Positions 5,885-43,254 of a stretch of DNA of 64,000 nt are shown piece after piece; position 1 is the stretch's first letter, and the number at the start of each line of letters is the position of its first letter. The stretch is taken from IMG/VR virus record IMGVR_UViG_2974588491_000001, positions 314,380 to 378,379 of that record, one strand, 5' to 3'. The position numbers and the translations under genes are program-made. A model generated the notes under the pieces. It was not told where the DNA came from, made no database searches, and saw only the letters and a program-made list of their open reading frames with translations. Origin of the DNA: a virus (lineage: Duplodnaviria > Heunggongvirae > Uroviricota > Caudoviricetes).

Positions 5885-5954
5885 TTAAATTAAAAAATAT
5901 AAAAATAAATGAAACGATAGAAAAAAATGTGGTATAATAATCACATAAAGGAAA

Positions 5955-6032
5955 TGCGGAGTAGAGCAGTCTGGTTAGCTTGCAAGGCTCATAACCTTGA
6001 GGTCGGTGGTTCAAATCCATCCTCCGCATCCA
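5955..6032 (+). tRNA. second tRNA with CAU anticodon (Met/fMet/Ile2), CCA encoded
   Basis: acceptor stem TGCGGAG/CTCCGCA, anticodon arm caagg-CUCAUAA-ccuug, T-loop TTCAAAT. Confidence 0.7.
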
Positions 6033-15058: not shown

Positions 15059-15086
15059 TTGACAGTACTAAACAATGTGCTATACT
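15059..15086 (+). promoter_or_regulatory. sigma70-type promoter (TTGACA-16-TATACT) at the start of the 1.2-kb non-coding block
   Basis: hexamer match. Confidence 0.5.
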
Positions 15087-16099
15087 GATAAGGTTCAAGC
15101 GGAAAGACAAGTTTTAAAAATCTTCTCGCTAAAAAGTTTAAAAAAGTACTTGACAACCACTTCGTTAGATAGTACAATGTAGTCTCTGATAAGGAACAAA
15201 GTGTTCCGAAGCTGATAAAGAGTTCAGCGTGTTAAATCTAAAAAGAGGATTGAACGCAAATGTAACAGTTAAATATTAAATTTTATAATATTGATGACTA
15301 GGAACTTTTTTGATTTTTAAATCTGGGCGAATGGTTCCCCCGATAACCGGAAAACTTTGAGGATCGCAATCATGAAGTAATTAACACTAATTGAATCTGA
15401 TCATTTAAAATATTGCCGAGTTATTAGTGGTACGGGGCGGTGTCCAGGCAAAAAACGCCGCTACCTATTATCCACGAATGAATGACATTTTGCAAAGAAC
15501 GAGTACTGCGTAAAGAGTACAAGCTGAGAGGAAACCGATACTCTTGAAATTATCAGTTATCGGCAGAGAATCTATGAAGGCTGTTCTTGTCTGACTTCGC
15601 CGTAGAAAAGTAACGGTACAAGGGTTATGTGAGATGTGTGAATCTTGCTGTAATGATGGATAACGAGTTAAGGCGTTTGATGGCTTACAGTCGGGTGATC
15701 CGGTCACAAATTAGGAGTAGAAACACAACTAACTGATCATGGTTAGATGAAGCTAAGGCAGAGCTTTCTCGTAAGTATTTGGTACGGGTACGGTGAGATG
15801 CATACCGTGAGTGTTTCAAACATGTGCGAACTGTATAGCGTAGATACAGTAACTCTTTCGAGAGTTGTTTGATTAACCGCATATGTCGAACTTTCCGAAC
15901 AAAGTTCAAAACAGAATTGAAGTACTACGAAGTTGCGTGTTATAATCAGTTCGGTGAGGACTAACACGCAGCGATTTAATTACTGTACTGAATTGTATCA
16001 TTCACAGTTTCGAGTTTGTGATGCAATAAGGTGATAGTAATAAGTTCGAGCAAAACATAGGTTGTCTGAGCAGTGAAGCTGTTAACTTCATGATAAGCC

Positions 16100-16129
16100 T
16101 TGACAATTAGGGAATAGCCGACTATAATG
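16100..16129 (+). promoter_or_regulatory. sigma70-type promoter (TTGACA-18-TATAAT) upstream of the XRE gene
   Basis: hexamer match. Confidence 0.55.
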
Positions 16130-16251
16130 TGTTTATAGATTCCCCACTACCTGTAAATGGTTAGCCCAAGTGCAGTAAAGATGTTTCGGTACGGGAGTTC
16201 ACACAAAAAGGACTCCCACCTTTTAAGTTAGCTGATTAAGTGAGAATAATA

Positions 16252-16482
16252 ATGAAAAACGCACTCAAAACCCAATTGTTCAAAATGATTAAGAGCACTG
16301 CATCTGAACGCAATATGTCTCAGCGTGACCTGGGGAAAGCGTTGCAGGTTTCTCAACCACGTATTTCTAACCTTCTTGACGAGCGTCAAGATCTGTTCAG
16401 TATCGATAAACTGCTTGAATTCGTTGATACGTTAGGGTATCATGTAGAAATCAAAGCAGTGGAAAAGGAGACAGTACAATGA
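16252..16482 (+). CDS. XRE-family helix-turn-helix DNA-binding protein
   Basis: SQRDLGKALQVSQPRISNLL HTH; TTAAGTGAGA pre-start motif. Confidence 0.65.
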   Translation: MKNALKTQLFKMIKSTASERNMSQRDLGKALQVSQPRISNLLDERQDLFSIDKLLEFVDTLGYHVEIKAVEKETVQ

Positions 16483-16628
16483 AAGAATATATTGTAGAGT
16501 ACTTCCAGAAAGGCGGTTCTAACCCGTTAGCTACTCGCCAGTTCGCACATAACGAAGCAATGGCTCGTACTAATGCGAAGAACGAAAAAGGCCAGGATAT
16601 TATTATCCGCAGCGTAAAACCTGCATAA
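16479..16628 (+). CDS. small protein (49 aa)
   Basis: ATGA-coupled; host-like codons; terminator follows. Confidence 0.4.
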   Translation: MKEYIVEYFQKGGSNPLATRQFAHNEAMARTNAKNEKGQDIIIRSVKPA

Positions 16629-16654
16629 CAAAAGCCAGTTACCCCACATTCAGA

Positions 16655-16682
16655 AAAGCCAGCTTAGCTCTGGCTTTTTTTA
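16655..16682 (+). terminator. rho-independent terminator
   Basis: aaagccagc-ttagct-ctggcttt followed by a T-run. Confidence 0.65.
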
Positions 16683-16723
16683 TTGGATAATTTTAGTTGT
16701 TGCTATTTTGTACGGAGATAAAA

Positions 16724-17716
16724 GTGAGTCCAAAAAAATTAAACTTAGATGATATTCAGGAAGATATCCTTGACGAATGTTTTGAAAAAGAAGAATTAAC
16801 TTTAGAATCACTTGTGGTAGATGATTCTGACGAGGATACAACTTCTGATGCTGATGATGTACATCACGGTTTAACAATGGATCAGATTAAAACACAAATT
16901 AAAGCTGACCAGTACATTAGCAACGAAGATCTAGTACGAAAAGTACAATCCGGCGTAGATGTAGAAGAATCAAAGAAACTACTTGTTATGTTCAACAGTG
17001 GTTTAGTGTACAACGAAGCGAAAAATTGTACTTGTAATATTCCATTCCAGGATAAAGTACAATATGGTTTCGAAGGTTTAATGAAAGCTATCTATGGTTT
17101 CAATACAACTTTCCGTACAATGTTTAGTACTTATGCAACAACTACGATCCGTCAACATATGTATCGTAACGGCAATAACGATGTTCGTATGGTAGCTCTA
17201 CCTGAACATCTGTCGGTTAACAACATTCGTATACAATCTTTTATCGAACGTTATATGAATGATAATACTGGCTATCCAACTAATGAGCAAATTGCTGAAA
17301 GTACTGGAATTGATATTCGTTCAGTAAAACGTATCATGAACTATAACAGTAATACTTTTAGTATTGATACGCCAATGAACAAAGGCGACGAAGGTTCAGA
17401 ACAAACACTAAAAGATATTATCCCTGGTGAAAGTGCTGATTATGTGGTTGATGAACGTTGTGTTGCAAAAGACTTTGTAAGTACAATGGAAGAAATCATG
17501 AATGAACTTGAAGAACATGAACGTGTTCTACTTGGATTAGTTCACGGTTTAGATGGTTATCGTATCCATACGTTTGATGAAATTATTAACACTGGATACA
17601 TTGATGGTAAAGGAAAGTTCGTAACTTCTAAAGCTACACTATCTCGTCGTTACAATGATATGATGGATAAAGTACGTCGTATTGTTGAACGTAAACAAAT
17701 CAACTTTGATCTTTAA
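16724..17716 (+). CDS. sigma-70 family RNA polymerase sigma factor (phage-encoded)
   Basis: region 2 FSTYATTTIRQ (cf. RpoD FSTYATWWIRQ); region-4-like HTH near the C-terminus; GGAGA RBS then GTG. Confidence 0.8.
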   Translation: MSPKKLNLDDIQEDILDECFEKEELTLESLVVDDSDEDTTSDADDVHHGLTMDQIKTQIKADQYISNEDLVRKVQSGVDVEESKKLLVMFNSGLVYNEAKNCTCNIPFQDKVQYGFEGLMKAIYGFNTTFRTMFSTYATTTIRQHMYRNGNNDVRMVALPEHLSVNNIRIQSFIERYMNDNTGYPTNEQIAESTGIDIRSVKRIMNYNSNTFSIDTPMNKGDEGSEQTLKDIIPGESADYVVDERCVAKDFVSTMEEIMNELEEHERVLLGLVHGLDGYRIHTFDEIINTGYIDGKGKFVTSKATLSRRYNDMMDKVRRIVERKQINFDL

Positions 17717-17728
17717 AGGTACTATTTA

Positions 17729-18439
17729 ATGACACATAAAGATAAACGTTCAGTTAGTACTGATGCACTTGATACGCTCGGTACTATCCATACTCGCGAA
17801 GAACATCGGGATGCAATTCACTTAGGTGTAGAACCAGTTATTGCTGGTGAAGATATTGCTGTAGGTGCAAACATTGGTATTGGTAAAGATGGTTTTGCAT
17901 ATGCTACCGATTACCGTTCTGATATTAAAGCAGTTGGTATTGCAGATCCATTTCTTGCGAATCGTATTCAAAAAGGTGAATCTTTCTGGCTCGTAGTATA
18001 TCCACGTAAGATTACTTCGCTACGCCATGTTTGGACTCATCCTGATTTTGATTCTGAAGAAGATCAGAAAGTACTTGACATTGCAGAAGTCTCAAGCGAT
18101 GATTTAATGGTAGAGATCCAACGCCGTTTAGCTACTAATAACATTGTACAAACGGTTCAGGAGCCGCAGCAGAAAGCCGCTGACAGCGATGAAAAGGCTA
18201 AGGCATGGGCTTGGATTAACGAATACGCAGACGGCTTAGGGCTTGATACAGACGAACTGATGGACTACGCCGATATGTGGGTTTCCTCTGAACGTCGCGG
18301 AACCTGGGGTGATTACCTTTGCAAAGGTGGTGATCTCGAAGGTGAATATGTCTCTGACGAATTTTGGGATAACTACGATATTGTCCGTGATGAAAGTACT
18401 GATACCGAACGTGGTTCCTTCTTCACGTGTTCTTGTTAA
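17729..18439 (+). CDS. acidic hypothetical protein ending FFTCSC
   Basis: 236-aa ORF immediately after the sigma gene. Confidence 0.6.
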   Translation: MTHKDKRSVSTDALDTLGTIHTREEHRDAIHLGVEPVIAGEDIAVGANIGIGKDGFAYATDYRSDIKAVGIADPFLANRIQKGESFWLVVYPRKITSLRHVWTHPDFDSEEDQKVLDIAEVSSDDLMVEIQRRLATNNIVQTVQEPQQKAADSDEKAKAWAWINEYADGLGLDTDELMDYADMWVSSERRGTWGDYLCKGGDLEGEYVSDEFWDNYDIVRDESTDTERGSFFTCSC

Positions 18440-18447
18440 GGTGTTAA

Positions 18448-18639
18448 ATGAAAGAAGAACACAAAGGAATCATTTCTGTTGGTAAAATTTTAAATCGTAA
18501 TCTGTTTGGTTTAAAAGGAAGTCGTCAGGGTTTTGGTAGTTTAGGTTTAGAGAATTTCAAAACTGAAACTATTGTTGATACTACAAAGATGACACCAGAA
18601 GAAAAGAAAGAATATTTGAAGAATTTCAACAAACAATAA
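18448..18639 (+). CDS. small hypothetical protein
   Basis: 63-aa ORF. Confidence 0.4.
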   Translation: MKEEHKGIISVGKILNRNLFGLKGSRQGFGSLGLENFKTETIVDTTKMTPEEKKEYLKNFNKQ

Positions 18640-18645
18640 TTCATA

Positions 18646-18690
18646 GGGTTGACTTCGGTCAGCCCTTTATTTTAATTAAATTTTATAATT
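18646..18690 (+). promoter_or_regulatory. PeSL-like cassette (GGGTTGACTTCGGTCAGCCC hairpin, T-run, -10)
   Basis: UUCG-tetraloop hairpin containing the -35 TTGACT. Confidence 0.55.
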
Positions 18691-18693
18691 ATT

Positions 18694-19668
18694 ATGGTTG
18701 CTAAGTTAACACAAAAAGAAGTTGAAAAGAAAGTCCAAAATAAATGCAAAAAACTGAATTATAAAGTTGAAAAGTTTGTATATACAACTGCTAAAAAAAC
18801 TAAACTATTACTTACATGCGATAATGGACATACATGGAATAGTACTTCGGTTGAAAACTTTTTAAGACTTTCTACTGGATGCCCCAAATGCAGTGGTACT
18901 AAGAAGCTGTCTCAGACTGAAGCAGAAGAAAATGTCAAATTAAAATGTTTAGAACTTAACTATACATGTGAACCATTCGATTACATATCTTCTAGAAAAA
19001 CTTTATTGACACTGACTTGTAATAACGGGCATACATGGAATACTACTACATATCACAAATTACTACAGGCAAACATAAATTATGGTTGTTGTAAAAAATG
19101 TGGTTCAATGAAATCTTCTGAAAAAATGAGGTTTGATAAAAATGATGTTCTACAAAAAATTAATTTAAGGTGTAAAGAATTAAATTATAAATGTGGTGAA
19201 TTTGAATACATTAGTAGTGTTAAAACTAAACTTCCATTAACGTGCAATAAAGGACATTCATGGAATACTACTATTTGTAGAGATTTTTTAAATGGTTCAT
19301 TATGTCCTATATGTAAAGGGCATTCACAAAAGATTGCATACATTAATTTAATAAGTGATGGTGATATTTCTATAGGATTAAAATATGGAATTGAAAGCAC
19401 TAAAGGTAGGAGATGTAAACAACAAAATTACAGTAGTTCTTTTAACATAAAAAGGATCAAAAGTTTTGAATTCGAAACTGTCGATCTTTGCAAAAATGCC
19501 GAAAGCGAATGTAAAAAAATGTTCCAAGCAGAAAACATACGTCTTATTAAGAAAAAAGGAATTTTTACAAAAAAAGAATTACCTGATGGCTATACTGAAA
19601 CTACTTATATTAAAAATATAGACAAAATAATAGAAATTTATAAAAAATACGGCGGTGTTGAAATATGA
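18694..19668 (+). CDS. protein with three tandem ~70-aa repeats, each (L/F)TC(D/N)NGH(T/S)WN...C(P/K)(K/I)C
   Basis: internal triplication visible in the translation; Cys spacing suggests zinc-ribbon units. Confidence 0.6.
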   Translation: MVAKLTQKEVEKKVQNKCKKLNYKVEKFVYTTAKKTKLLLTCDNGHTWNSTSVENFLRLSTGCPKCSGTKKLSQTEAEENVKLKCLELNYTCEPFDYISSRKTLLTLTCNNGHTWNTTTYHKLLQANINYGCCKKCGSMKSSEKMRFDKNDVLQKINLRCKELNYKCGEFEYISSVKTKLPLTCNKGHSWNTTICRDFLNGSLCPICKGHSQKIAYINLISDGDISIGLKYGIESTKGRRCKQQNYSSSFNIKRIKSFEFETVDLCKNAESECKKMFQAENIRLIKKKGIFTKKELPDGYTETTYIKNIDKIIEIYKKYGGVEI

Positions 19669-21895: not shown

Positions 21896-22569
21896 TTAAA
21901 TGAAACCACGGATTTTTTTATGGTATAATCATATAGACAATCCTGCTTGATAGGGAGAGAAATCTTCCTAATGATTGAATCCCTACTTCGATGAAAATGT
22001 AATTGGAGAGTTGAGAAGTTCAGGCAGTTCGGAGAGCAAAAGAAACCCGTTAGGAGATGGCATAGTTTGTACCACCCACGGCAATGCGGCTCTATAAAGA
22101 AGTACATCTAATCGTTACCAGTACTTCCTCGATAGACATATAAGTGCAACCTTACCAAAAACGATAAGGGAGAATATGCACCAATTTTGTACAATATAGA
22201 TCCGTCCAAAATTTGTGAATCATATTCAAGTACTTTGTTTGATTGTATAGACAAGTATTAAGTGAGCTAAGACCTCGACCGTTGTTAGAACTGAAATAGG
22301 AAGAAACAGGACAACCCGCTTCCGTGCTGAAAAGTAATTTTCAATACAATTGCCGACGACTATCATCGTCAGTTTTCATCCTCCTGCGGGGGGATGAAAT
22401 TGCCTCTACAAATCTCGTCAGTAATAAATGTGTTGAACAGTACAACGATTGAATTTTAAATATGATTTTCTTGCAGCGAAGCGTAAGAAAATCCTTGACT
22501 TGCTTCAGCAAGGCGAGTACACTACTCGAATTGAAGCATAAACAAATCATAAAATATGAGGTACATCTG

Positions 22570-41085: not shown

Positions 41086-41151
41086 TTTAAATCTCCTATT
41101 GATTATTTGTTAATGTATTAGGGAATGAACGATCATCTCCATAAATTATTC

Positions 41152-41184
41152 TTACAGCACCACCAATTGCGGAAAAGGTAACAT
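41152..41184 (-). pseudogene. 10-codon remnant of an MLPF-family gene (MLPFPQLVVL*)
   Basis: AAGGAGAT RBS, ATG and 10 codons of the family N-terminus, then TAA. Confidence 0.45.
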
Positions 41185-42214
41185 ACTTTTATCTCCTTCT
41201 TATTTTTTTATACGTCTCTATTATACTATGATAGAAACTAATATAGGTATTTACCCACTTTATCATTCCTAGACACTCCTTAGAACACATGCTATAATCC
41301 CCCTAGAAGCTCGTAGAACGCTCTACAACGCACGTGTTTGATTCCTGTAGTATCGCTATTGCGATATCGAAAGGATTCAAACTAGCTAAAATAGCGTTCA
41401 CGATATTCTATGTATTAATATACAGTACTGTAATAATACACAATATGGATAAGTTATCAGTACTATATGTTTGTACAGGAAAAGATAGGTTCTATCTTAT
41501 AGTACTATAGAAGTACAGTTCAGTACTGTTGACCCCTTCCGCTATATCCGTTCCTGAAGTCGAATGCGAATAGCACAAAAAGTACAGCAACCTTTTTTCA
41601 AAAATGATAACATGAGGTTGGGAAAAATCTGGAGTGATCGTGAAATCAAATACGAATCAAGGAAATTTTGGAGTACCCTTCAGACTTTTTCTGAGATCTC
41701 GAAAGTACACCAAAGTAAAGACGCATCGTAGAAATTACGTTCAATACTATAATACAAATACAAAGTACTGAAAATTTATACAGTACTGTTATTATGCACA
41801 GTGCAATATAAATTTTAAAATCAGATGAAAAAAGTACTTGACGAGGGATGATGGAATTGATACTATAGCTACAAGTTAAGGAGACAGGCAACGGTCAAGC
41901 CTCTCAGCCACGTAGCCTGGAACCTTAACAGTACTGCAATGATGGTTGCCCCCTGATTTGCAGTCCTCTTACCAGAGGTGTTCTCTTCATTGCTTAGGAA
42001 ACATTAAGTACTAAGCGTGTTAAAAATTTGAAGTACTTTATAGTACTATGCAGTGTACATTCTACTAAGTCATCCTGCCAATAACTTTTGAATGTATAGT
42101 GCTAGTACTATATCTTTTTAAGTGAGAATATTAGTACTGTATAAGTACTGATGAATTACCAAAGTACAGATACAATGAGGGTATATGTTGTCTGAATTTT
42201 GGGTGTACTATCCC

Positions 42215-42360
42215 TATCTGCTATCTTCAGATGGATAGACTTCTGGCGGTGTAGATGGCTGGATGTTTAAACGTCTAGACTGCTATCCTTCTGGATGGCT
42301 AAAAGGCTAGATGGCTATCCGTATAGATGGATAGACGTTTAGACGGCTAAATGATTTTTT
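42215..42360. repeat. iteron-like cluster (AGATGG(A/C)TA(G/T)AC and inverted variants, at least 6 copies)
   Basis: e.g. agatggatagac x2, agatggctgga, ctagatggctatcc in the 2.2-kb non-coding region. Confidence 0.55.
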
Positions 42361-42530
42361 CTGTCAAAATTCCATTAGCTCCCCTTCCGCGACTGGATAG
42401 AACCAGGCAGAATCGAAAGTCGTCTTTTCGTGTTGACAGGGATATAATACCACACTGAAAAACAATTGCAAGGGATTTTTTGCAGAAAAATAAATTTGAC
42501 AAGTGAACCAGGATTATAGTACTATATAAG

Positions 42531-42643
42531 CAAGCCAGAGAAATGGCCTAGCCCACAGGGTGCGGAGATCCGTCTATTGCTTTTTATTTGAATTTTGGAC
42601 ACAATTCCGCACCCTGTGGGTCAAGGAGTTTCGCCTCCATGTA
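42531..42643 (+). repeat. inverted-repeat element copy A (CCCACAGGGTGCGGAG...CTCCGCACCCTGTGGG), ends AAGGAG-N8-ATGTAA start-stop
   Basis: 16-bp arms with ~38-bp spacer. Confidence 0.6.
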
Positions 42644-43254
42644 AAGTATTATGCCAGTACTGCGAACATAATGCAAGGACTTTTTACGATTTTCTTTAAA
42701 AAAGTTTCCCCTTCTATATACGTATAAAGGAAGCGTTTAGAGCGTGTCAGATCCTGGGGCTTACAGTTTTGTACTTTATACTTTATAAAGCCGTGTAAAG
42801 CGTCCTATGCGTTCCTTGTACGTGTATACGTATATAGAGAAGGAAAAGCCTGTTAGAAAGAATCTTATAAAAACTTATATAAAGTACTTGCAAAGGTTTT
42901 TTGGTGTGATAGTATTAATCCCGTCGAACAGGACAACGCTCTTTAAAAACTTGCTGGTGAATACTTAAACATGCCTCCAGGTACTTTGAAAAAAGAATCT
43001 GAGAGAATGAAAAAGTACTTGACAGCAAGAATAGAAAGTGTAGAATGTTCAATATCGAAAGGCGGTAAGGTTCGCCGGATGGTAGGAAGCGGTAGCAGGG
43101 CGATAAAGTACTGCTACAGTGATAAGCCGGAAGTGCTATCACAGCGTTATAAAGGTTAACATAACTGTTAACGTCCTATCTACTGCCTTTTGATTCTTTC
43201 AGTACGGTAAAAGGTACGAAAGAATAAAGATTCAGAAAGTTATCAAAAAGTACT

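Follow-up and report, generated by a model that had tools for sequence, protein, structure and literature searches.

The locus described here supplies testable candidates for the elements by which jumbo phages that lack an RNA polymerase of their own may time early, middle and late transcription. It lies in a 64,000-nucleotide (nt) stretch of phage DNA, the window, taken from record IMGVR_UViG_2974588491_000001 (record coordinate minus 314,379 gives the window coordinate, which we use throughout). Positions 16000–18700 of the window are 100% identical by megablast to Pectobacterium phage vB_PcaM_CBB (KU574722 / NC_041878; hereafter CBB), a Rak2-like jumbo phage of the genus Mimasvirus with a genome of 378,379 bp. 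Read along the + strand, on which all features of the locus lie, a gene-free interval with tandem early promoters is followed by a gene for an XRE-type helix–turn–helix (HTH) protein (FDG95_gp468 in GenBank), the 49-codon gene orf49 (gp467), an intrinsic terminator, a sigma-70-family gene (gp466, product ‘RNA polymerase sigma factor’), a gene for an acidic protein that we call p236 (gp465) and the short orf63 (gp464). The open reading frames (ORFs) from which the original prediction started, namely the XRE-type gene, a sigma gene with the signature FSTYATTTIRQ and an acidic 236-amino-acid ORF ending in FFTCSC, are all in place and match the GenBank annotation of CBB; orf49 and the terminator, which fall within the same interval, had been overlooked.

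Parts of this locus have been described before. Buttimer et al. (2017; PMC5259590), who described the CBB genome, assigned the sigma factor (CBB_513, with regions 2, 3 and 4 by InterPro) and the XRE protein (CBB_511) to an early, host-takeover region and reported three promoter classes: RpoD-like promoters with an UP element, a set with −35 TGAAACG and −10 TATA located upstream of replication genes, and late ATAAATA promoters. The second, distinct class is present in both CBB and GAP32, and a separate gp55-like factor is encoded as CBB_244 (PMC5259590). Group 2 jumbo phages as a whole lack their own RNA polymerase and all encode sigma factors, some of them RpoD-like (Iyer et al. 2021, PMC7824862), and the related phage PA5oct relies on the rifampicin-sensitive host polymerase (PMC7318152). 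The sigma factor of CBB is therefore already known, being annotated and discussed in both the genome paper and the comparative review. What our re-examination changes is its proposed surroundings, as p236, the XRE gene and the AGTACT-containing elements are not specific to sigma; it also adds two features on which the annotations and papers that we found are silent, an orf49–terminator–sigma arrangement and a large, covariation-supported RNA behind the strongest early promoters.

The sigma gene (16724–17716; FDG95_gp466 / CBB_513) starts with GTG and encodes 330 amino acids, its translation containing ...TMFSTYATTTIRQHMYR..., and its identity is far above chance in Pfam, PHROG, NCBIfam and a phmmer search of the PDB. 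Region 2, which covers core binding and −10 recognition, reaches 28.2 bits against Pfam Sigma70_r2 (cut-off 24), and region 3 reaches 27.5 bits against Sigma70_r3 (PF04539; cut-off 25.3; residues 194–241 of a 339-amino-acid ORF). The protein matches PHROG 351, ‘RNA polymerase sigma factor’ (E=1.4e-65), and passes a single NCBIfam model, the superfamily model TIGR02937 (47.3 against a cut-off of 42.9). Against the PDB, residues 79–312 align to residues 179–412 of Thermus SigA (E=3e-18), from region 1.2/2.1 to the end of region 4.2, and membership of the sigma-70 family is essentially certain. We rejected an extracytoplasmic-function-like (ECF-like, group 4) or truncated sigma, given a region 3 above the Pfam threshold and 330 amino acids with collinear regions 2, 3 and 4. 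We likewise rejected a group 1/2 equivalog: the NCBIfam RpoD, RpoS and SigB models all leave the protein far under their cut-offs (RpoD_Cterm, the best, 101.5 against 354; RpoS 86.9 against 378.7), and the tryptophan dyad of such factors is replaced by TT.

The C-terminal HTH of the original prediction stands as a fold and fails as a profile match. In an AlphaFold model built from a 20-sequence alignment (overall predicted local distance difference test (pLDDT) score of 71, weak at the N-terminus and between domains), four C-terminal helices at residues 251–260, 264–274, 284–290 and 303–323 are predicted with pLDDT 81–90, so that region 4 is present in the model as four helices with a C-terminal HTH. 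The Pfam region 4 profile (PF04545) gave no match at E<=0.1, and precomputed matches to it occur in 0 of 70 phage homologues of the sigma, while both bacterial RpoD matches have it. We attribute this family-wide failure to a 12-residue insert in the HTH turn, GYIDGKGKFVTS, which separates the first HTH helix from the recognition helix, is found across the family and contains two nearly invariant residues, D294 and G297. The notion that region 4 is absent was accordingly rejected on structural grounds, notwithstanding the Pfam result.

Alignment to sigma-70 proteins is informative on specificity in region 2 and much less so in region 4, whose recognition residues cannot be aligned confidently. 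Across region 2.3/2.4, fstyatTTirq of the phage protein faces fstyatWWirq of Thermus SigA, the tryptophan dyad becoming TT, and further along alpeHlsV faces ripvHmvE. In Escherichia coli numbering, the position of T440 is Y and that of E458 is V, with Y430, R436, Q437, R441 and H455 retained. The layout of the protein is completed at its N-terminus by a strongly acidic segment (residues 1–60; 19 D+E against 5 K+R) with a conserved family-specific motif, LNLDxIQDEILDECF, ahead of region 2 with FSTYATTTIRQ, region 3 and the region 4 fold with its insert. In our reading, the gene encodes a complete sigma factor whose promoter-reading surfaces differ from those of sigma-70.

By tblastn, homologues of this sigma occur in 99 phage records, essentially all of them Rak2-like jumbo phages. 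The full-length matches lie in genomes of ~350 kb that belong to Mimasvirus, Eneladusvirus, Asteriusvirus (121Q/PBECO4), Alcyoneusvirus (RaK2) and related groups. Almost all of these homologues carry a sigma-factor annotation, and the nearest cellular proteins reach E=8e-13 at best. A recognizable sigma-70 member had been thought atypical for a T4-like phage; CBB is Rak2-like and not a member of the Straboviridae, and within its own group the factor is conserved, annotated and published. The sigmas of the Rak2-like group (group 2.2), among them GAP32_490 (91% identical to that of CBB), BF_0507 (79%), fHe-Yen9-04 g498, 121Q gp167 (34%) and RaK2 ORF244 (32%), all belong to the same family (PHROG 351) and share an early-region location and a terminator in front of the gene; they differ in that orf49 accompanies sigma only in the sub-clade with at least ~42% sigma identity to CBB.

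Several better-known factors help to place the protein. Bacterial RpoD, RpoS and SigA carry the WW dyad, T440, E458 and an uninterrupted, Pfam-matching region 4 where the CBB factor has TT, Y, V and the 12-residue insert, and in group 1/2 factors region 1.1 and the non-conserved region take the place of its short acidic segment with a motif of its own. T4 gp55 is likewise a phage-encoded specificity subunit for the host core polymerase, but it is a minimal, sigma-2-like protein that requires gp33 and the sliding clamp, whereas the CBB factor extends over regions 2, 3 and 4 and falls into another family, PHROG 351. SPO1 gp28 and phiEco32 gp36 are early-made phage sigmas that displace the host sigma on core polymerase and switch transcription to middle-class promoters. 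They resemble the CBB factor in its proposed mode of action; both are shorter and, unlike the CBB factor, have experimentally defined promoters.

Immediately upstream of sigma lies an arrangement that is conserved well beyond the close relatives of CBB. The gene orf49 (16479–16628; FDG95_gp467, PHROG 36312) overlaps the XRE stop codon with its start (ATGA) and encodes a basic protein of 49 amino acids (isoelectric point 9.6) with the family pattern MKEYIVEYF..GxS....R...A.SE..AR...K.EKG.DIIIR. It is followed by an intrinsic terminator (16653–16686; z-score −2.64) with a 10-bp stem, GAAAAGCCAG/CUGGCUUUUU, a 7-nt loop and the U-run UUUUUUUAUU, and none of 200 shuffled sequences folded as well. 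We compared the locus with homologous phage loci, metagenomic contigs included, which carry L-numbers here (L003 is GAP32, L013 Yersinia phage fHe-Yen9-04, L035 121Q and L036 RaK2). In these, orf49 stands directly upstream of sigma in CBB, GAP32, BF, XbC2, Kaldavass, Yen9-04, L019, L022, L029/L030, L032 and L033, and a 48-amino-acid ORF occupies the same position in Hallingskeid, as judged by eye. The adjacency holds in L022, where sigma is 42% identical to that of CBB, and the sole exception found is L026 (P0208), a divergent orf49 copy with no sigma within 3 kb. Three approaches agree on it: tblastn of six local proteins against the fetched loci, ORF reconstruction and context look-ups. The homologue of fHe-Yen9-04 (L013 3321–3485; …MKEYIVEYFMPKSSVPMATRTFAHSEANARAAAKKEKGNDIIIRSTRLV) is unannotated in its record, and that of Serratia phage BF (BF_0506) is annotated as 71 amino acids with a probably over-long N-terminus.

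A hairpin with a U-run occupies the position of the CBB terminator in 10 of 10 phages examined, Munch and Hallingskeid included, and by eye also in L029, L032 and L033, giving 13 loci in total; it is kept even at a sigma identity to CBB of only 42%. The sigma start codon is GTG in nine of the ten phages, and in CBB a scan for the sigma-70 consensus turned up nothing promoter-like (at least 9/12) from the terminator to the sigma start. Together, the adjacency and the terminator define a conserved core that runs early promoter, orf49, terminator, sigma. The orf49 family itself is very small, with 10 clusters in a set of 1.84 billion representative proteins; it has no Pfam match and no PDB relative by sequence profile search, and is missing from the Munch, 121Q and RaK2 loci, which have sigma and the terminator.

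The early promoters at the head of this core are of host type. P1 (15059–15086; TTGACA-16-TATACT, TG-extended, A-rich upstream) and P2 (15150–15178; AAAAAGTACTTGACA-17-TACAAT) each match 11 of the 12 sigma-70 consensus positions, and P3 (16100–16128; TTGACA-17-TATAAT), in front of the XRE gene, matches all 12. Both hexamers of P1 are kept in GAP32, BF, XbC2 and Kaldavass; P2, which carries the motif AGTACTTGAC, is kept in all relatives, with a near-identical promoter in front of the RNA in contig L032; and P3 is kept in XbC2 and Kaldavass, not in GAP32 or BF. Between P3 and the ribosome-binding site of the XRE gene, a hairpin followed by CUUUU (16193–16225; minimum free energy −14.8 kcal/mol) may act as a weak terminator or attenuator, and GAP32, XbC2, Kaldavass and L032 have an equivalent hairpin followed by CTTTTAA.

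AGTACT-containing elements had been put forward as candidate promoters for the phage sigma, a role that their context contradicts. The window holds 14 exact copies of AGTACTTGAC, all on the + strand (for example at 15145, 41833, 43014, 43249, 57616, 58931 and 62012+), and 49 sites on both strands with at most one mismatch, against 4.7 expected. Most exact copies are preceded by an A-run, and about half then have a TAnnnT-type −10 hexamer at the usual spacing. From this over-representation we derive an extended early-promoter consensus, AAAAAGTACTTGACA, whose −35 hexamer is joined to a ScaI-like palindrome; the early host-type promoter consensus is AGTACTTGACA-N17-TAnAAT (also written AAAAAGTACTTGACA-N17-TAnAAT). 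The AGTACT elements extend TTGACA on its 5′ side in host-type promoters close to consensus. Where their hexamers are good, the AGTACTTGAC sites represent what the CBB paper calls ‘RpoD-like promoters with UP element’, targets of the host sigma-70. GAGTACT also occurs within the spacer of several promoters (47544, 50489, 53615 and 54671).

The interval behind P1 and P2 very probably encodes a genuine structured RNA outside Rfam, which recurs in phages like Mimasvirus and Eneladusvirus and in metagenomic contigs. No coding sequence is annotated between 15027 and 16251, and no unannotated gap in the first 50 kb of the window is larger. Over ~740 nt after the tandem promoters with which it starts, the sequence is 68–84% identical in 18 phage records, which leave the region empty or fill it with tiny minus-strand ORFs. 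We place the RNA, of ~0.8 kb, at 15185–15973, its 5′ end set from P2 and its 3′ end at the end of conserved structure. RNAalifold applied to ten homologues returned 113 consensus pairs, of which 44 show compensatory changes. The 3′ domain comprises 61 pairs in 10 helices; its cells are paired in 97.7% of cases, where shuffled alignments reach 86.5%, and both partners change in 32 of its pairs, where shuffles give 14.8 (0 of 500 shuffles as good in either measure). The count of 32 falls to 3–7 when the partners are slid by 1–3 columns. On the + strand, predicted G–U pairs outnumber A–C pairs 114 to 15, and the consensus energy is −87.3 kcal/mol forward against −68.1 kcal/mol for the reverse complement; the G–U excess and the better forward folding assign the structure to the + strand RNA. 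A missed coding sequence in this 1.2-kb gap was rejected on the lack of a conserved ORF, the compensatory helix changes and the large excess of G–U over A–C pairs.

Peripheral helices of the RNA are gained and lost among phages, with lengths from ~0.33 kb (L032) to ~0.95 kb (XbC2), and the more distant loci L019, L022 and L032 share only its 5′ block. The most constant element is a block of 24 nt (15245–15268), GAGGATTGAACGCA(A/G)ATGTAACAG (also written GAGGAUUGAACGCA(A/G)AUGUAACAG), which recurs with at most two mismatches across all variants of the RNA, including L022 438–461 and L032 2217–2240, and is kept where sigma is only 42–46% identical. No local consensus fold is predicted around this block, which sits in an AU-rich stretch; in our own reading it could represent a Shine–Dalgarno sequence followed after 10 nt by an AUG–UAA start–stop (GAGGA-N10-AUGUAA).

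Comparison with all 4,227 families of Rfam 15 gave no match at the gathering score or at E<=1 for CBB, L002, L003, L004, L022 or L032, and known families (GOLLD, ROOL, introns, RNase P, tmRNA, 6S and others) were rejected as candidates on that ground. GOLLD and ROOL resemble the CBB RNA in being phage-borne, several hundred nucleotides or more in length and multi-helical with strong covariation; the CBB RNA differs in matching neither covariance model and in lying behind tandem early promoters by a sigma gene, not by tRNAs. A covariance model of its own 3′ half (R1) recovered the close group only, with no match in Munch, Hallingskeid, L019 or L022. The abundant non-coding RNAs seen by RNA-seq in PA5oct are unrelated to it (PMC7318152). 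A literature search found no description of the RNA or of orf49, and the RNA appears to be undescribed. The CBB-type RNA block is absent from the 121Q and RaK2 loci, where unannotated gaps of 720 nt (L035 2963–3686) and 370 nt (L036 2768–3138) directly downstream of sigma may be other non-coding elements. In the window itself, two further stretches free of annotated genes lie at 21896–22569 (674 nt) and 41086–42970 (1.9 kb); within the second, the terminal repeat begins at 41545 and promoter-like sites lie at 41834 and 42496.

The explanation that best accommodates these features, to which we give a probability of roughly 0.6, is an early transcription-control region in which a gated sigma factor serves a phage-specific promoter class. 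Host sigma-70 polymerase would start at the near-consensus promoters at 15059, 15150 and 16100 and, to judge by gene order, drive the ~0.8-kb RNA, the XRE regulator and orf49. With a terminator directly before sigma, no sigma-70-like promoter between the two and a GTG start, sigma, p236 and orf63 would be read-through-only, delayed-early products, and the terminator would both delay and limit sigma synthesis; a delayed-early sigma suits a driver of the next temporal class. As expected from established sigma biology, the protein would bind host core RNA polymerase, and the TT in place of the tryptophan dyad, Y at T440, V at E458 and the HTH insert suggest that it directs this polymerase to promoters of a class specific to the phage. 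The likeliest target is the −35 TGAAACG / −10 TATA set upstream of the replication genes, with late genes left to the gp55-like factor CBB_244.

Both the read-through timing and the assignment of sigma to the TGAAACG class are what we infer from sequence, and three points weigh against them. A scan of the window for TGAAACG-N16-TATAAT found one site (5910–5938, 17 nt upstream of the tRNA-Met gene at 5955–6032), so that most of the class would lie outside the window and its link to sigma stays inferential. The region 4 recognition residues, as noted, align without confidence. The promoter scan, finally, covered the sigma-70 consensus, and promoters of other types after the terminator would escape it.

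An extension that would add to a gated, early-region sigma rather than exclude it is that orf49 is the true sigma-linked factor, either an antiterminator like lambda N, by which polymerase would get past the terminator before sigma, or a small anti-sigma or co-factor whose synthesis would precede and exceed that of sigma. The lambda N protein is small and basic, and its gene lies behind an early promoter and ahead of a terminator (pL-N-tL1); orf49 is likewise small and basic, its tiny family sits directly upstream of sigma in every examined case but one, and the promoter–orf49–terminator–sigma order persists in Mimasvirus, Eneladusvirus, Hallingskeid and metagenomic lineages in which sigma is down to 42–46% identical and all other surroundings vary. 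Gene order can, however, persist among related genomes without a functional link, the divergent homologue P0208 has no sigma within 3 kb, Munch, 121Q and RaK2 manage with sigma and terminator and no orf49, and we found no sequence or structural likeness of orf49 to a known antiterminator or anti-sigma. We hold the idea tentatively, as possible and on the unlikely side, and the link of orf49 to sigma may be one of position alone.

Somewhat more doubtful again is a previously undescribed, conserved early regulatory cassette of tandem host-type promoters, a new class of structured RNA of ~0.3–1 kb with the 24-nt 5′ block, orf49, terminator and, as its gated end, sigma, in which the RNA and/or orf49 would control read-through. 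Were it true, antitermination of the HK022 put or lambda N kind would set the moment at which host sigma-70 gives way to the phage sigma. What the locus shares with those systems is their anatomy, that is, an early promoter, a small basic gene and/or a structured leader RNA, and a terminator gating a regulator gene; no likeness in sequence or structure was found and no nut-like site was identified in CBB.

A further alternative to a sigma with promoters of its own is a protein that acts mainly as a host shut-off decoy and competes with sigma-70 for core polymerase. The loss of the promoter-melting tryptophan dyad and the atypical region 4 HTH would fit such a role, although group 3 sigmas without WW are fully functional. 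The DNA-binding modules are all kept family-wide (Y430, R436–Q437 and R441 in FSTYATTTIRQxxYR, the region 3 HTH and the region 4 fold), and the distinct second promoter class of CBB and GAP32 needs a reader (PMC5259590), which makes a decoy improbable.

The genes on either side of the core show a different pattern of conservation. The XRE-type protein (16252–16482; 76 amino acids; FDG95_gp468 / CBB_511) matches Pfam HTH_37 (PF13744; 65.3 bits against a cut-off of 27), PHROG 18318 (E=2e-33) and PDB entry 2a6c (E=1.9e-6), and is by sequence a generic HTH_37 regulator. It does flank sigma in CBB, as originally described, but it is not a conserved neighbour, with no tblastn match in the loci of BF, Yen9-04, Munch, Hallingskeid or L022. 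Downstream, p236 (17729–18439; FDG95_gp465, PHROG 11912, the family of Erwinia phage S6 gp057) begins 12 nt after sigma and is followed after 8 nt by orf63 (18448–18639; FDG95_gp464, PHROG 26948), a 63-amino-acid basic protein whose homologues follow p236 in GAP32, BF and L020; an intrinsic terminator (18645–18674; minimum free energy −14.8 kcal/mol, z-score −4.9) then closes the sigma–p236–orf63 unit.

The p236 protein is acidic (isoelectric point 4.44; 48 D+E against 24 K+R) and ends in ...RGSFFTCSC. We found 1,524 homologues at E<=1e-3, without a Pfam domain and typically of ~195 amino acids, some of them in Burkholderia and Paraburkholderia genomes. Members occur in 66 phage records, many of N4-like podophages (S6, KP8, JWAlpha, Zuri) and others of phiM12/phiN3, CcrColossus, Caulobacter jumbo phages and similar; the gene is missing from most phages that carry sigma. 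It is absent from the sigma-bearing phages of 121Q, RaK2, Munch and Yen9 type, and no Escherichia, Salmonella or Yersinia jumbo phage with sigma has it. Proteins of N4-like phages in the S6 gp057 family are 44–46% identical to p236 over its full length and share its invariant histidines and cysteines and the C-terminal FFxCSC; p236 of CBB differs in an extra acidic linker of ~40 residues, and many N4-like phages carry the gene as two separate ORFs. Part of the acidity resides in this variable central linker, absent from the typical ~195-residue members. Invariant residues are K6, T11-D12-A13-L14, R27-D28-A29-I30-H31-L32, I95-T96-S97-L98, H100, W102, H104, F231-F232, C234 and C236, and the most conserved segments (TDAL, RDAIHL, ITSLxHxWxH and FFxCSC) lie largely at AlphaFold pLDDT <50. 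The histidine–cysteine pattern suggests a metal site, which is our guess, or partner-dependent folding. In S6 the homologue lies between a dUTPase gene and the genes for helicase and DNA polymerase, and in phiM12 near gp32 and a deoxyribonucleotidase gene.

That p236 is a dedicated anti-sigma or co-factor of sigma, with the XRE protein as regulator of a single module, is very improbable: although p236 is acidic, directly follows sigma in CBB with no terminator between them, so that the two are co-transcribed, and lies within ~0.5 kb downstream of it in GAP32, BF, XbC2, Kaldavass and several metagenomic contigs, its >1,500 clusters and its phage records are distributed differently from sigma, it sits among DNA-metabolism genes in both other phages examined, the pair is usually split by an inserted gene where both are present, no anti-sigma or other family in Pfam, NCBIfam or PADLOC scored above threshold, the PDB gave no sequence match, and the XRE gene has no tblastn match in the five loci named above. 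Judged by gene context, the XRE gene and p236 are lineage-variable neighbours of sigma rather than dedicated partners.

The gene inserted between sigma and p236 is an HNH endonuclease in GAP32 (L003 6183–6692) and an ORF of 145–165 amino acids in BF, XbC2 and Kaldavass. Homing-endonuclease-type genes populate the locus more widely, and in CBB one follows orf63 at 18694–19668, encoding a 324-amino-acid endonuclease in which DUF4379 zinc-finger repeats are combined with a T5orf172 domain.

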